The notes: a model not told the origin generated them from the sequence alone. A stretch of DNA of 64,000 nt from Nitrosopumilus sp. (GCA_965214775.1 OZ243974.1:288001-352000), one strand, 5' to 3'; counted from the first letter of the stretch, positions 1,733 to 58,198 are shown. Translations and numbers: made by a program.

Positions 1733-3166
1733 TCAGACTTGGTTGCGCCACTTGATATCGAACCTCAGATCATTGCGGAATACTTTCTTTGTCTCAGGTA
1801 TGGATTTGATCATGCATCTTGCGAATTCAAGCGACTCTGCAGTCTTTCCTTGCTCAACGAGTATGTATGTCTTGAGTACTGCAGAGTGGGCATTCCGGTG
1901 TAGGCTTATACTTCGATCCAGATACTTTATGGCATCATCACGTCGTTCCATTCTCCACAAGGTGACCCCGGCAGAGTGCAATCCAGTTGCATGTTCTGGA
2001 TCTATCTCAATTCCTCTCTTCAGGTATTCTAGTCCCTTCTCATATTCCCCGTTATTGGAAAAAATCCCGCCCAGATAGATCAGTGCGTCAGGATGATCCG
2101 ACCGTATTTGCAGCACTCTCTTGTACTGCTCTTCGGCTTTGTCAATGTTGTTTAGATTTACGTACACGGTTGCAAGGTTGTAAACAAGTTCCGCAGATTC
2201 CGGTGATGTATTCACCGCGTTCTGGGCCTCCTTGATTGCTTTATCGTGGTTACCCATCAGCAGCAAAACGCGACAAAATACTTGTACATATTTTGCATTG
2301 TCGTGGTTCTGCGTTAATGCTCGATCAAGCGATTGTTTTGCATTGTCAAACTCTTCAAGATTTGTATGCATTATACCCTTGAGGTAGTGGCTGGTGTGAT
2401 CTGCCGGATCGATCTCGATCAACCGGTCGATCTCGATTATTGCCTCACGTCCTTTACCGGAAGCGTACAGTCCTAACGCGACGCATCTGAGTGCTTTTTT
2501 ATTGGCAGGATTCAATTCTAGGCATCTTCGGAAATCTTTTACTGATTTTGGATATTCCTCCTTACGGTAATGTATTATGCCCCTCCTAAAATAGGCATCA
2601 TCTCGGGTTGGTTCTAGTGTCAGGATATCGTCTAGTATATGGAGCGCCTCATCAAACCACCCAAACCTCTCTAAAACGATGGCTTTGAAAAACAGCATCT
2701 GCACATTGTTTGTATTTCTTAGCTCCTCTTCATGTTGCCTTACCCATTTTTCATACTTTGTCAATTCTATCAGTGAATGTCCTACGACATGCAGGTCGCC
2801 AACTTTATTCAAACTACTGTAGAATGACAGATACCTGTCTGGATGAGGTAGGTTTAGATCCATCAACATTTTGGAAAATAGAGTCCCAATCTTTTCTGGA
2901 TATTCGTCTGGATGTACCAGATCCAATTCTTTCATGAACCTGTCCCATCGACTTTGATGCTCTTTGTAACTGTCAAATGCGATCCACCTGCCCAACAGTT
3001 GTTCTGCCTCGATCCTCTTTTCGCTACGTAGCAGATTCAGAATGATTGACTCTTCTTCTACACGTTCGGACAGCAGTATGCATAGTTGGTCTACATTCTC
3101 ATTCTCTACAATGTGCACTTTGAACCATTGTTGAATCTCATCGGTCATTTTGTCATCCGTATCCAT
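1733..3166 (-). CDS. TPR-repeat protein, probably the C-terminal part of a frameshifted Doc-TPR fusion
   Basis: Multiple TPR-like 34-aa units (AYFRRGIIHYRKEEYPKSVKDFRRCLELNP etc.); overlaps the Doc ORF. Confidence 0.8.
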   Translation of the reverse strand: MDTDDKMTDEIQQWFKVHIVENENVDQLCILLSERVEEESIILNLLRSEKRIEAEQLLGRWIAFDSYKEHQSRWDRFMKELDLVHPDEYPEKIGTLFSKMLMDLNLPHPDRYLSFYSSLNKVGDLHVVGHSLIELTKYEKWVRQHEEELRNTNNVQMLFFKAIVLERFGWFDEALHILDDILTLEPTRDDAYFRRGIIHYRKEEYPKSVKDFRRCLELNPANKKALRCVALGLYASGKGREAIIEIDRLIEIDPADHTSHYLKGIMHTNLEEFDNAKQSLDRALTQNHDNAKYVQVFCRVLLLMGNHDKAIKEAQNAVNTSPESAELVYNLATVYVNLNNIDKAEEQYKRVLQIRSDHPDALIYLGGIFSNNGEYEKGLEYLKRGIEIDPEHATGLHSAGVTLWRMERRDDAIKYLDRSISLHRNAHSAVLKTYILVEQGKTAESLEFARCMIKSIPETKKVFRNDLRFDIKWRNQV

Positions 3167-12777: not shown

Positions 12778-13385
12778 ATTGTGTGCAACAATTTGTATGT
12801 TGGTTATTTAATATATCTATGGTATCAGTCTTCTGTATGAGTTTACCCCTCAGGCGACGTTTCCAGTCAGGGTCTTGGCGACCATCTCACTCACGTTGCA
12901 ACCCTGGGCGCGCCAGTTCATCGTGCATGTCATCAGTACGGTGAACATCTCCATGCCCTCCATGGTACGGAGTCCCTGGAATATCTTGCGCGCAATTACG
13001 GACGGCCTCAGCATGCGCTCGGCCAGGTTGTTGGTGGGCTCCATGCCCGGATACAGCACGAACGTGTACAGGTATTCTGAAGCGTTCCCAAGCTTTGTAG
13101 CAAATCTCGCGCAACCTGCCTCCCTGAATGCTACGGCCAGTGCGCGTGTCTCGACTACCAGCATGTCGTGCTGCTGCTACCTGGTATCGTCCTTCTCCGG
13201 TGGTGGTGGTTCCAGCCCCTTGGCAAAGAGGAACTTTTTCTTGAGTGTATCATACAGCGCGTGGGCCTGCCGGGAAGTCTTGTCGGCATCCTTGGCCTCC
13301 CGGAGTATGTGTGCCCAGCACCACTGCCTAGTCTTGAATACGACATATACACCGTACCCGTCGACTGTAGCTGGTTTGTCATAAT

Positions 13386-13465
13386 AGACTTTATGCGTAA
13401 TCGACCTGAATGAGATGAATTTGTTCGTAATAATCCTAGATTTGAACCAATTACGCATAAAGTCT
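13386..13465. mobile_element. MITE family C (80 bp, AAT target duplication)
   Basis: TIR AGACTTTATGCGTAAT / ATTACGCATAAAGTCT; second copy 23652-23731; same ends as the IS at 54384-55868. Confidence 0.9.
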
Positions 13466-13681
13466 AATACGGAAAGTTCGTGTCAACTACTATCCTGCCC
13501 TTGCTGGGTGCAACCAGCGTGTGGACGCCGGTTATGCTGCCGTCCTTGTCCTTGCCTACTACCACCCATATACGGGCCGTCCTGCCGTTGTATGGCATGG
13601 CAGTCTCGTCAATATGCAGATAATCAGAATCTCGGATGGCCTGCTTTATGCCCTCTACGCTGGGCTTTATTGCCTTGGTGC

Positions 13682-13791
13682 AGGCCCTCAGGCACTGCAG
13701 CACGCCTGCCTCTGAGACCTACGTCCTGCGGGCGTACTTTGACATCCAGCTATTAGGCCCTCAGGCACTGCAGCACGCCTGCCTCTGAGAC
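13682..13791. repeat. 37-bp direct repeat flanking a 36-nt unique insert
   Basis: AGGCCCTCAGGCACTGCAGCACGCCTGCCTCTGAGAC at 13682 and 13755. Confidence 0.95.
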
Positions 13792-14600
13792 GTCCATGTT
13801 CAGGATTTCTGAGCACATTGTGGCCGTGGCCTGTATGGAGGCAGGTGCCATGTGCATTGAAGTTATCATCCCCGTAATGTTTGGTCCAAACTCGGTTCCC
13901 GGCACGTTCCAGTCCCTGTCATCCTCCATACACACGTGGCCGCAGTCGGCGCATTCGCGTTTGTATGCGGTGTGCTGCTGTGTCGTGACCGGTTTGGGCC
14001 TCTTGGGGATCTCAGTCACGGTCTTTGAGAACATCCTTTTGGGCTTCTTCATGTTGGTGCTGCCGCACTTGTCGCACTTTTTGGGGCAGTGCTTTACAAA
14101 TTCGGTCGGCATCCTCTTGTGTGATATTCCCTTGTGTCCCTGCCTGCGGCCCGGCTTTGCCTTTGCAGATGCCGGTACGTTGCCTGATGCCTTTGCAGCA
14201 GCAGTCTTTTTCTGCCTGGTCGGAATCGAGTTCTGCGAGGATGGGGTGTGCGGGTTTTCGTAATATTTGATGTGCTGTTTGAGCTGCTGGTTTTCTGCTG
14301 TCAGCATCGTCTTTTCTGCCGTGACCTCGGCCAGCTGTTCGGTAAGCCCGACTATTGTCAGATCCTTGTCTGCGATGGTTCTATCCTTCCTGCCTAATTC
14401 GGCTATGGTGCGGGCCAGCTCGTCGCGCAGTATCTTGGTCTCTGAATCAGGCATGAATACAGAGAGTTGATTCGAAATTAGCAAACTCTGATTATTTGTG
14501 AACGAATGTGCATGAAACAACTCAAAATATCAACAAAATACAAATTATCTGTGAAATTACTTGAAAAATTCGTATGGTTTCTAATTTCGGATCATCTCTC

Positions 14601-14668: not shown

Positions 14669-14856
14669 GACTGCCTTCCAAACAATTGATCCTGACCGAT
14701 TATTTGTACGGAACCTAGAAGATAGGAAGCGAATTGCCATCCTGCAATCAGCGATGACGTTTTTGGCTGCAATCACCCCGGTCATGCCGGCCATCCGGTT
14801 TTCTCCGTCTTTGTTCAGGGCTGAATTGGGGATTGATTCTGTCGGGGCATCAGAAG

Positions 14857-14986
14857 GGAGTTGTCGCCTAATTCCATTTATTTGGCTCAATCTGCCAGTT
14901 TTTCTAAACTTCCGCCCTTGTGCACGCCTGATCCACATGGCATCTCAATGGTTTTCAGGAATTCTGATGAATTAGGCGACAACCTC
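14857..14986. mobile_element. MITE family H (about 130 bp)
   Basis: TIR GTTGTCGCCTAATTC / GAATTAGGCGACAAC; copies 28963-29092 and 61899-62128 (9-bp target duplication GCTGTCTTG). Confidence 0.85.
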
Positions 14987-15231
14987 CTGCGCACGACCAA
15001 GAACTCATACACGAAGGAACCTCCTTCCTCAAGAACAACCATATGTGGAATGTGACAAGGATATCGCAGCCACACTCCGTATACAAGACACTTGAGCAGA
15101 TCGTGCAAGATAATACTATTCTATCCGCTTTATTGGAATTTCAATAACACAATACACATTTCCAGATATTACCATTCTAGTACCTCTGTGTCCTTGAGTC
15201 ATGCGAATAAGCCTTTCATGGTTCTTTTTTC

Positions 15232-15313
15232 GTACAACTTCAGGTCCTATTTAAACCGCCTAGGAATCTAGGAAGTATTTGCTTGCCAGTATAAATAGGA
15301 CCTGAAGTTGTAC
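15232..15313. mobile_element. MITE family D (82 bp, 8-bp target duplication, IS66-derived)
   Basis: TIR GTACAACTTCAGGTCCT; TSD CTTTTTTC here and CAAAAAGG at copy 16802-16883; same ends as the IS at 39371-41476. Confidence 0.92.
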
Positions 15314-15384
15314 CTTTTTTCTAAATTGACATGCAACTCTTTCTCCAAATATGGCATCACCTTCATCTAGATGTATTGGCATGA

Positions 15385-15795
15385 TTATTCAGGGCTATTG
15401 ATTAATTTTCCTTCGTTACGTAGAGAGTCAACAACATCCATTACCAACATTAAATCAAGACCATGCTCATTAGCAAAATCACTCGGATAGAAAATGTCAC
15501 CGACGTTAATTTCTTTCAAGAGAAGTTCACGTATTTGTTCGTTAGTGAGATCAGTATCTTCAGGAACTGCATCCATAGATGTGATTTTATGTTGTTTAAG
15601 AAGTTGCCACATGTTAGCATTATCTACAATTAATTTTTCAACGATAGAACGCAAATGTATGTAGGCATCAACTAAAGAAACATGCGCATCATCTGGTTTT
15701 TGATTTAAAATCCCATCACGAAAATATCTAAGTGATTGTTTGTTATCAGCTATTTCATTATCATGTTCACGTTCAGATTCAACTAGTAGCGTCAT
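15385..15795 (-). CDS. Hypothetical protein with C-terminal wHTH-like segment
   Basis: FYPSDFANEHGLDLMLVMDVVDSLRNEGKL resembles a winged helix. Confidence 0.6.
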   Translation of the reverse strand: MTLLVESEREHDNEIADNKQSLRYFRDGILNQKPDDAHVSLVDAYIHLRSIVEKLIVDNANMWQLLKQHKITSMDAVPEDTDLTNEQIRELLLKEINVGDIFYPSDFANEHGLDLMLVMDVVDSLRNEGKLINSPE

Positions 15796-15807
15796 AATAC
15801 ATTCTCC

Positions 15808-16104
15808 TCAATCATAGTATGTACGCATTGTCCTTTTAGGTTTATCGTATCTTTGCCATGCTGTTAATTGATATAAAGTGGCAGTGTATCGTACTGCTTT
15901 TAACACTTCATATAATTTAGATAAATCTCCAGAATCATAAACATCAGGCAAAGGTTTTGCAGCTTCGATCATTTCATTTTTTAGCTTGTCAGACACGTCT
16001 TTAGGTACAGAGTAATTTTCTATTGTATGAGACAAATTAGAATAAACAGATTCCAAAACTTCACTGATGAAGACTTCATTTTTTAATTCCAAATTCCAAG
16101 ACAA
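15808..16104 (-). CDS. Hypothetical protein (start uncertain)
   Basis: AT-rich ORF co-oriented with 15385-15795. Confidence 0.5.
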   Translation of the reverse strand: MSWNLELKNEVFISEVLESVYSNLSHTIENYSVPKDVSDKLKNEMIEAAKPLPDVYDSGDLSKLYEVLKAVRYTATLYQLTAWQRYDKPKRTMRTYYD

Positions 16105-16262
16105 ATTAACTAAATCATGTGCAATCCTGTAACAAACAGCATAATTTCCGTCTTCAAGATTTGCTTGAATATCTTTCAGACGCTCTGAATACAGAGTTTA
16201 GCTCTTTCATACCTCAATACAATTCCAGCAGTATGTATATTAGACTTTGCGTAGTCAATGGC

Positions 16263-17640: not shown

Positions 17641-17756
17641 GGCGGCCCTCGCTGATTTTCTGGACTGCCATTTCACAGCCAGATGCCCATGTTTGCAATC
17701 AATACGACTGAGAGGCGGCCCTCGCTGATTTTCTGGACTGCCATTTCACAGCCAGA
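17641..17756. repeat. 43-bp direct repeat flanking a 30-nt unique insert
   Basis: GGCGGCCCTCGCTGATTTTCTGGACTGCCATTTCACAGCCAGA at 17641 and 17714. Confidence 0.95.
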
Positions 17757-49653: not shown

Positions 49654-50184
49654 AATTCAAATCCATCAAAGATGATTTTGCAATGATTATTTTTTAATTG
49701 TCGGCATAACGTTCTGCATAATCCAAAAAGTAGTTCACCCCTTCTACGATTGTGTACAGTCAGGAGCAGGTGTGTGAGTCTGACCCACACTGAGAGGTGA
49801 TCCGAAATTAGAAACCGTGCGAATTTTTCAAGTGATTTCGCAGATAGTTTGCATTTTGTTGGTATTTTGAGCTGTTTCGTGCAAATTCGTTCACAAATAA
49901 TCAGTCTGCTAATTTCGAATCAACTCTCAGGCCCAGACTACCACCGACGACTAGGACGATACCATGGGAATGACGTTCGTGCCGCGCTCGGAGGGACAAA
50001 AGCGACTCAGGATCGAGGTCGACGTCTAGAACCGGCCCACGGCAGACGCGGTGCCTGAGGCAAAGACGTTCAGATGGCCGGCTTGCGGCAGAATGTCAAA
50101 ACTTCCCAAATGTCCCCGCGATATTGCCCAGTACGTTTAACATATATTCAATAAATTTATTAATTTGCACTGGGCAATACATCT

Positions 50185-57194: not shown

Positions 57195-58198
57195 ATGCCT
57201 AGCTTTAGCGAGATTCAAAAGGAGATACTGGAGGAAAGGGCTCCGGAAACCAAGCATGATACGGTCTGAATCTGCGGCCCAATATGCAAATATCGCAAAA
57301 GAAGGAGGAAAGGGCTCCGGAAACCAAGCATGATACGGTGAGAAGAAGATATCTTGCGAAAATGTCCGAAAAGACAGGCAGAAACACAATACTGTACTAC
57401 TCGGGATGGCTACAAAAGCCGGTCAGGAGCATTTCCGCGTTGACGTCGATCAGCGACAATGACAAAAATGGCTTTATGAGTGTAATACGAGGACTGGATG
57501 TCTCCAAAGGTCTTGACATAATACTGCATACCCCCGGGGGAGACATAGCAGCTACGGAATCCCTCATAGACTATCTTAACCAAAAATTTCACGGAGACAT
57601 GAGGGCGATTATCCCACAACTTGCCATGTCCGGTGGGACGATCATAGCTTGTGCGTGCAAGGAAATAGTGATGGGAAAGCAATCCAGCCTGGGACCCATC
57701 GATCCGCAGATAAACGGGCTGGCCGCATCTGGGATCGTGTCAGAATTTTATCATGCAAGCAAGGAGATGAAACATGACAGAAGCAAGATCAACGTGTGGG
57801 GACCGATCATATCCAGTTATCCGCCATCACTTGTTGAAAACTGCAAGAAGGCGATATCCTGGTCCAAGGAGCTTGCGTCAGACTACCTGTCCGGCTCCAT
57901 GTTCAGAGATGATTTAAAGCTCGATCATGGTCCAGTCCAGCAAAAAATTGATGGCATCATACGCCTTTTGACGGATCAAAACATGACCAAATCACATTCA
58001 AGACACATACCAATGCCGGTATGCCAAAATACCTGATTGAAGATAGTAGAGATGGAAAAAGATCATGATCTGCAAGACATCATTCTCTCGGTACACCACG
58101 CCTCAGCACTGACAATTATGAACACGCCTACTGTCAAAATAATAGAAAACCAGAACGGGCAGGCATACATTTCTGGATATTCCAAGACGCCTGCGTGA
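57195..58198 (+). pseudogene. ClpP-class serine protease (SDH_sah/S49-like), disrupted
   Basis: LHTPGGD, AMSGGT, LGPIDPQ, SHSRHI; 74-bp insertion near the 5' end and in-frame TGA at 58034. Confidence 0.8.
57230..57339. repeat. 36-bp direct repeat flanking a 38-nt unique insert
   Basis: GGAGGAAAGGGCTCCGGAAACCAAGCATGATACGGT at 57230 and 57304. Confidence 0.95.

Follow-up and report, generated by a model that had tools for sequence, protein, structure and literature searches.

Most demonstrations of spacer integration outside CRISPR arrays have come from over-expressed Cas1-Cas2 of E. coli or from work in vitro. In the type I-E system of E. coli, off-target integration is said to give rise to neo-CRISPR loci, a finding attributed to Nivala, Shipman and Church in 2018. 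A preprint that cites this work speaks only of 'circumstantial evidence' for two other species. Off-target full-site integration by P. furiosus Cas1-Cas2 in vitro is reported to occur through joins at G (or C) that are spaced by the length of a repeat, with border bases G1/T2/A6 (PMC6698737). Adaptation in the type I-B system of Haloarcula hispanica begins at a fixed first site, the leader-repeat junction, and measures off the length of the repeat with a ruler (PMC4872114). Lone spacers held between two repeats, away from cas genes, are described in two accounts of the mini-CRISPR arrays of viruses and of orphan or isolated arrays (PMC8616872; PMC13142298), and for isolated arrays off-target acquisition is listed among the proposed origins (PMC13142298, which cites Shmakov et al. 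2020).

The structure described here is referred to as scar 1. It occupies positions 13682-13791 of the window, which is a stretch of 64,000 nucleotides corresponding to positions 288001-352000 of a 2.83-Mb Nitrosopumilus sp. genome (47% G+C), and it consists of the following parts.

13682-13718, minus strand: target copy 1, a 37-mer that is also found once each in three other copies of the host insertion sequence
13719-13754, minus strand: spacer-like insert of 36 nt, unique in the genome
13755-13791, minus strand: target copy 2, 100% identical to 13682-13718

An earlier note on this DNA had described a 37-bp duplication around a 36-nt insert, and the repeat search bears this out exactly: the two 37-mers are identical and lie 73 nt apart from start to start, and the sequence between them occurs a single time in the 2.83-Mb genome. 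A perfect 37-mer repeated at 73 nt is far too improbable to have arisen by chance. Our reading, to which we assign a probability of roughly 0.87, is that scar 1 is the product of off-target (non-canonical) spacer integration by Cas1-Cas2, that is, a "neo-CRISPR" unit. The E. coli neo-CRISPR loci, as reported, and the units of this genome as a set have in common a spacer-length insert, a repeat-length duplication, a chromosomal site that is not a CRISPR array and a choice of site that resembles the leader-repeat junction, and the E. coli units are described as able to seed arrays. The events reported here differ in that they are natural and fixed, belong to an archaeon with a native type I-B system, carry duplications of 36-37 bp and number about 44 in one genome.

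Scar 1 lies within a degenerate copy of an insertion sequence (IS), of which the following segments can be recognized.

12835-14462, minus strand: degenerate IS66-family copy (~1.45-kb element), host of scar 1, from BLAST against the genome
13753-14454, minus strand: N-terminal fragment of the transposase, severed by the 73-bp insertion, from the ORF list and the intact paralogue
13464-13703, minus strand: middle fragment of the transposase (LQCLRACTKAIKPSVEG...VVDTNFPY), colinear with its intact paralogue
12850-13458, minus strand: C-terminal transposase fragments, from ORFs 13177-13458 and 12850-13164 compared with the intact 476-aa protein
13382-13469, no strand assigned: MITE-like insertion of ~86 bp with 20-nt inverted arms, the second lesion of the IS66 copy, from repeat search and BLAST

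A BLAST search with genome positions 300001-303600 reveals at least 10 other copies of the ~1.45-kb element (query 835-2462) at 90-98% identity. The intact paralogue encodes 476 aa and scores above the cut-offs of both PF03050 (1.1e-29, 104 bits against 23.1) and NF033517 (184.4 bits against 180), so the interrupted gene is that of an IS66-family transposase, as the note had named it. The paralogue reads without interruption across the split point (...MDVSEAGVLQCLRACTKAIKPSVEGIKQAIRDSDYLHIDET... / ...VLQCLRACTKAIKP...), which agrees with the further claim that removal of 73 bp joins the flanks in one frame. In the window copy, ORF 13753-14520 (minus strand) ends in ...MDVSEAGVLQCLRA; the transposase start, MPDSETKIL, is assigned from the intact paralogue. 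The 73 added bases shift the frame by +1 and thereby inactivate the copy, although the consequence is that of a frameshift in a transposase already decaying: the gene is broken in at least three places, including a frameshift near 13165-13185 that separates the C-terminal fragments and the MITE-like insertion (I3), whose arms are 95% complementary. The MITE-like sequence (query 1381-1470) has matches at more than 20 further places in the genome and is skipped by the other IS copies, and contigs of three sequencing runs connect 13381 to 13465, as those copies predict. The neighborhood contains several multicopy MITE-like families, 85-140 bp long and present in ~10 to more than 20 copies each (13382-13469, 14462-14600, 14856-14984 and 15229-15313). 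Contigs from run X1, which belongs to a different study, include a relative with 36 differences over ~1 kb in 15112-16248 that lacks 90 bp at 15226-15315, which suggests that a related strain lacks one of the small multicopy elements.

The other copies of the element also supply the empty state of the site. All 10 of the 10 other copies that span it lack the 73 bp that the note had proposed they would lack, and hold the target 37-mer or a close variant once, as is visible in the three that were aligned; the two BLAST segments overlap in the subject by the length of the 37-mer, and hence these copies contain one target and no insert. Beyond the three copies with the exact 37-mer, others carry it once with 1-2 substitutions. 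Among the contigs of the sequencing runs, which break at the repeats, none bridges scar 1 at its own locus in either the filled or the empty state, and the loose ends of contigs at 13718 and 13755 are those expected from the other IS copies.

As many IS and MITE copies are found in this region, one could suppose that scar 1 is an assembly artefact or a small transposon or MITE that made a 37-bp target-site duplication. This is the least credible of the explanations considered here. The insert is single-copy, no inverted repeats within 13719-13754 are reported by the repeat search, so that it has no terminal inverted repeats, and inserts differ from one unit to the next; moreover, contigs of runs X3-X5, which come from one study and possibly from the source culture, exactly reproduce three other units in IS66 copies, those at genome 895394 and 894783 included. 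Transposons and casposons do share with scar 1 the underlying operation, in which staggered strand transfer and gap repair duplicate the target. The difference is that the insert here has neither ends nor genes of its own, is unique to each site and is flanked by a duplication of 36-37 bp. The target duplication of casposons is usually 14-15 bp.

The dimensions of scar 1 have a ready counterpart in the CRISPR arrays of the same genome.

Genome 2420114-2425007, minus strand: array B, 68 repeats, each 37 nt long, with most spacers at 33-37 nt (mode 35), period 71.9
Genome 1977219-~1978062: array A (orphan), 11 perfect 36-nt repeats and one degenerate repeat

The array B repeat, read on the minus strand, begins GTCG and finishes ATTGAAAC, and the array, which has a leader of ~90 nt, adjoins an operon of the order cas7 (Csh2)-cas5-cas3-cas6b-cas1-cas2-cas4, preceded upstream of cas7 by a 591-aa ORF with no family hit. 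The layout is that of type I-B. Whole-genome model searches return one Cas1 (232 bits) and one Cas2 match, the cas1, cas2 and cas4 frames are open, and archaeal ribosomal protein genes (S4e, uL6) lie beside the operon. Array A has a period of 73.4 (range 72-75), spacers of 36-39 nt and a repeat ending ATTGAAGC; no Cas family was detected among the 13 ORFs scanned within 10 kb of it. By the geometry of these host arrays, scar 1 amounts to the duplication of exactly one repeat length and the insertion of one spacer length. The newest spacers, in the leader-proximal part of array B (genome 2424440-2425007), measure 36, 35, 50, 35, 30 and 29 nt, with a degenerate repeat inside one of the intervals, and it may be that the integration ruler of this array has been imprecise in recent times.

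Units with the same arrangement recur throughout the genome. There are 334 perfect non-CRISPR direct repeats of 28-48 nt at periods of 30-300 in the whole genome, and 55 of these fall at periods 70-76; elsewhere, most periods are divisible by 3 and reflect coding tandem repeats. When mismatches are tolerated (at least 30 matches in a 34-nt window), periods 71, 72, 73 and 74 yield 4, 14, 14 and 9 hits, respectively, and the other periods of 56-95 that are not multiples of 3 yield 0-2, save for 3 at 70, 1 at 76 and 7 at 75, where the seven imperfect hits are attributed to a multicopy 25-nt motif. Eleven of the 55 perfect repeats were removed: nine are coding repeats, tandem or multicopy, and two were considered doubtful (genome 90701, with 44+26 nt, and genome 1056987, a simple-sequence repeat). 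This leaves 44 ectopic units, with an amplified unit at genome 895394 counted apart. Duplications of 34-39 bp are present in 32 units, of 28-33 bp in 8 and of 43-46 bp in 4. The modal length is 36 bp (13 units), with 37 bp in 8, 38 in 4 and 39 in 1, which is the pattern expected of a true length of 36 bp with chance extension. The mean period is 72.8 +/- 1.3, and the duplication is perfect in 30 of the 42 units at periods 71-74 and 76. The inserts are all different, no 12-mer being common to any two of 46, and a transposon is thereby excluded.

Two further units reside in the window itself.

17641-17756, no strand assigned: second unit, period 73, apparent duplication 43 bp, insert 30 nt
57230-57339, no strand assigned: third unit, duplication of 36 bp and insert of 38 nt, located at the 5' end of a 250-aa ORF

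The second sits just downstream of a 92-aa ORF, and its insert is 29/30 identical to genome 1469986-1470015; the insert of the third agrees with genome 1393039-1393076 at 38/38 positions. Within this latter insert (57266-57303) falls the first ATG of the 250-aa ORF (57284-58036), and the insert may have provided the gene's start or displaced it.

The second unit belongs to a group of five (genome 90701, 305641, which is window 17641, 849741, 1281865 and 2701975) in which the apparent duplication is 43-46 bp and the insert 26-32 nt, and yet the period stays at 70-76 (~73). Such constancy is not obviously predicted by an integrase that works with two rulers. It could instead be taken to indicate an undescribed process, unrelated to CRISPR, that always adds ~72-73 nt by combining a short genomic copy with a compensating duplication of the target. 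Consistent with this, the period is independent of duplication length (71.6 for duplications of 28-33 bp, 73.0 for 34-39 bp and 72.7 for 43-46 bp; r=0.21), and 17 of the 44 inserts copy the host's own genome. We nevertheless regard such a process as improbable. The apparent compensation is largely a matter of ambiguous boundaries, as several units with short duplications extend to ~37 bp once 1-3 mismatches are allowed, and in three of the units with long duplications the source of the insert continues to match for 3-5 nt into the duplication. This overrun suggests microhomology between the end of the prespacer and the target; after 3-5 nt are allowed for, duplications of 39-41 bp remain in those three units. 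Furthermore, the period equals that of the host CRISPR arrays, an intact set of integrase genes is present, the edges of the units resemble a true leader-repeat junction, no insert recurs, and the inserts do not form hairpins (p=0.07). Less probable still is slippage during replication, or the repair of a break with filler DNA: either could yield a local duplication with a short templated insert, and some inserts do come from the genome itself, but a fixed duplication of ~36-37 bp, a fixed insert of ~36 nt and a rule of G-rich edges at 32-44 unrelated sites are not expected from it.

This edge rule emerges when both edges of the 44 units are pooled (88 edges). G is enriched at +1 (39/88, p=2e-5), at -3 (38/88, p=7e-5) and at +4 (39/88); T or C is found at +2, positions +6 to +8 are A-rich, and A is depleted at -1 (9/88). 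A weight matrix built from the edges only, with the array B junction left out of its construction, gives the leader-repeat junction of array B (GGCT/GTCGTAAT, the slash marking the junction) a score of 4.13 bits, which places it in the top 0.39% of random sites. The likeness of the targets to the repeat itself is slight but significant, with 12.1 identities to repeat B against 10.75 for random 37-mers (p=4.5e-4). In the P. furiosus reactions the joins are likewise made at G one repeat apart and the sites bear a partial likeness to the repeat border (PMC6698737); the pattern found here is G at +1, T/C at +2, G at +4 and A at +6 to +8. The substrates there were plasmids and the spacing 30 bp, whereas the sites considered here are chromosomal and heritable, with a spacing of 36-37 bp. 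A measured duplication of repeat length and a first site that resembles the leader-repeat junction are features also shared with H. hispanica (PMC4872114). In contrast to that system as it is there described, the ectopic sites have no leader and lack conserved motifs midway through the repeat, with 12.1 identities to repeat B against 10.75 at random.

Scar 1 conforms to this rule to a limited degree. Its better leader-like edge is the outer edge of target copy 2 (13791/13792), which reads GAC/GTCTCAG on the minus strand, and its match to the leader-repeat junction pattern is limited to GAC/GTC...A. When scored with scar 1 itself left out, this edge obtains 0.9 and the other edge -0.8, against a mean of -1.4 (sd 2.1, 95th percentile 2.1) for random edges, so the resemblance is mild and both scores lie below the random 95th percentile. 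The earlier note had also loosely likened the duplicated sequence, read in reverse, to a CRISPR repeat. In substance this hint at CRISPR holds, in that 37 nt is the length of repeat B, the insert has the length of a spacer, and the reverse sequence starts GTC as repeat B starts GTCG. The overall sequence does not follow: without gaps, the target agrees with repeat B at no more than 12/37 positions and with repeat A at no more than 12/36, where random sequences average 10.75 and 11.5, respectively. This is the level of chance, and the likeness is confined to length and edge bases. Nor is the inner inverted repeat (CAGGC...GCCTG) that the note had picked out special. The folding energy of the scar 1 target falls at the 7th percentile of GC-matched random 36-mers, and a preference for hairpins or cruciforms is not significant among the 32 core targets (p=0.069) or among the inserts (p=0.07).

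Which adaptation module made the units is a question nested within the preferred reading. Several features recall array A rather than array B. The ectopic period of 72.8 does not differ from the 73.4 of array A (p=0.22) but exceeds the 71.9 of array B by ~0.9 nt (p=6e-4), a discrepancy that counts against our explanation in its present form, as does the modal duplication of 36 bp, not 37, which is the repeat length of array A. Array A, as noted above, has no cas gene within the 10 kb scanned. It could be, therefore, that the units were integrated not by the resident type I-B proteins but by a lost or extrachromosomal module cognate to this orphan array. We consider this the less likely of the two possibilities, though it carries more weight than the other alternatives. 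The genome has only one Cas1 hit, the mostly perfect duplications suggest recent events, and the edge matrix that ranks the array B junction so highly puts the array A junction in the top 6.9% of sites; in addition, the comparison of periods draws on just 10 array A periods. Of the two modules, the type I-B one now resident is judged about twice as likely to have made the units.

The insert of scar 1 had been called foreign, and while it does read as coding DNA, as the note had also proposed, its nearest matches are resident. It is 34/36 identical to genome 1024993-1025028 and 33/36 identical to 482713-482748, and both positions belong to members of one gene family. The former lies inside the following ORF, which has RPYVLRAYFDTQLL where the insert encodes YVLRAYFDIQL.

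Locus L006 246-1880, minus strand: 544-aa integrase-like ORF, closest match to the scar 1 insert

The family of this ORF comprises 13 further tblastn hits at 40-85% identity, and a C-terminal fragment of it is present in the window at 49964-50074. Searches of Pfam (above cut-off), PHROG and PDB sequences return nothing for it, and the lead offered by ESM-Atlas, a tentative one, is to tyrosine recombinases (score 0.91, 17 of 30 hits); the family could be the integrase of an unrecognized mobile element. An exact donor of the insert has 0 matches in three collections (viral_contigs, genome_contigs and metagenome_contigs), and none of 150 other genomes in the genus holds a sequence that differs from it by 3 or fewer mismatches. 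Accordingly, the donor was a member of the family that is not resident or has been lost, or else the insert or its source has mutated since. With an insert 34/36 identical to a resident integrase-like gene, a foreign origin is unproven.

A similar self-derivation is common among the other units. The source search took in 47 inserts, three of which were later dropped; near-full-length matches elsewhere in the genome are found for 17 of the remaining 44 (16 at coverage of at least 80%). Six of the 17 are exact, five in single-copy DNA and one in a multicopy element. By comparison, 0 of 78 array spacers match the genome (Fisher 2.7e-9), and the G+C content of the ectopic inserts is 50%, against 42% for array B spacers and 47% for the genome. 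The simplest reading is that a spacer against self is lethal in a real array but harmless in a unit that undergoes no crRNA processing, which fits with the tolerance of self-derived inserts in units that are never expressed as crRNA. As judged by eye, TT stands beside one end of 6 of the 12 distinct self protospacers, and in 5 of these 6 the TT end faces the better leader-like edge; it is absent at the closest source of the scar 1 insert. The pattern is a faint hint of PAM-guided, oriented integration.

Taken in sequence, the preferred mechanism would run as follows. Cas1-Cas2, loaded with a prespacer of ~36 nt that may have been cut from a member of the integrase-like gene family, would have found within the IS66 transposase gene a site whose edges loosely mimic a leader-repeat junction, and would have performed two strand transfers there, on opposite strands and 36-37 bp apart. 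Gap repair would then have copied the stretch between the joins, to leave target, insert and target, the equivalent of one repeat-spacer-repeat unit. That Cas1-Cas2 was the catalyst, and the order and orientation of the joins, we infer; the anatomy of the product, the empty sites, the ruler lengths, the enzyme genes, the ~44 analogous units and their edge preference are what is observed. Scar 1 is probably not a working CRISPR locus, since its 'repeat' appears unlike a Cas6b substrate. In this respect it differs from the mini-arrays and isolated arrays, in which, as described, the repeats match a real CRISPR repeat and are usable, whereas here they are local sequence.

Some of the units appear to have gone beyond a single integration. 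Besides scar 1, IS66 copies elsewhere contain three units (genome 894783, 895394 and 1929695), so that 4 of 45 units fall in the ~19 kb of IS66 DNA (summed from BLAST rows) that makes up ~0.7% of the genome. The unit at genome 895394-895650 (locus L005) has four repeats and three identical inserts of ~37 nt at a period of 73; its site is homologous to window 13835-13870, and the same IS66 copy carries the different unit at 894783. At genome 1266834-1267014 (locus L024, ~2834-3014), three copies of the target alternate with two different inserts of 36 and 37 nt. The first of these target copies is imperfect at its 5' side, where one base is missing from an A run and there are two substitutions. 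Conceivably, this unit took up a second spacer and became a neo-array. The surroundings (genome 1266242-1281908, locus L024) hold five units in 16 kb, in an island of glycosyltransferase, sulfotransferase and PMT genes that also includes an AbiEi/AbiEii pair.

Events of this kind are known; the unusual features are how many clean, fixed and natural ones occur beside an intact native system, and the contrast in self-content between these and the arrays. A natural genome with so many events was not found in the literature covered, subscription papers being mostly outside that coverage. A broader interpretation, which we put forward tentatively and at slightly under even odds, is that the adaptation machinery acts as an endogenous mutagen across the whole genome. 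It would have left ~44 fixed off-target integrations, 32 of them with textbook geometry, along with a unit amplified to three identical spacers and what appears to be a nascent array of three repeats and two spacers. As the units would not be read out as crRNA, they would then constitute a natural record of the DNA that the native type I-B integrase samples and of its landing sites, without selection through interference (~40% self inserts against 0% in the arrays), with survival shaped by selection in that mid-gene units would mostly be in-frame 24-codon insertions and IS DNA would be over-hit. If this were true, a wild genome would allow direct measurement of what adaptation costs in autoimmunity and mutation, and of how new arrays are born. 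In any case, the set offers a rule, obtained in vivo, for the target sites of a type I-B integrase from an archaeon and allows the content of unselected and selected spacers to be compared (self 17/44 against 0/78; G+C 50% against 42%). The units exemplify gene disruption, in-frame protein insertions of 24 codons and the inactivation of insertion sequences by a defence system, and they are candidates for the first steps of array birth. For annotation, such units are missed by searches for repeat similarity or dismissed as false two-repeat "CRISPRs".

Signs of selection among the surviving units may be seen in those that interrupt genes. By a rough criterion, a unit is classed as mid-gene if its removal leaves a stop-to-stop ORF of at least 150 codons with more than 30 on each side; a period of 72, which keeps the frame, is found in 6 of 12 mid-gene units so defined against 4 of 32 others (p=0.015). 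Examples are a 615-aa Ig-domain/Mrr protein and an 833-aa PMT/LamG (glycosyltransferase-like) protein. With a 908-bp stretch around another unit as the query, comparison of DNA gave no match in 20 relatives, and as the species are too distant for comparison at this level, proteins were compared instead. In the 833-aa protein, the in-frame unit contributes ~24 extra residues that are absent from two paralogues, and alignments with orthologues break at the unit in 5 of the 6 relatives within the genus that give a strong match, the sixth aligning across it.
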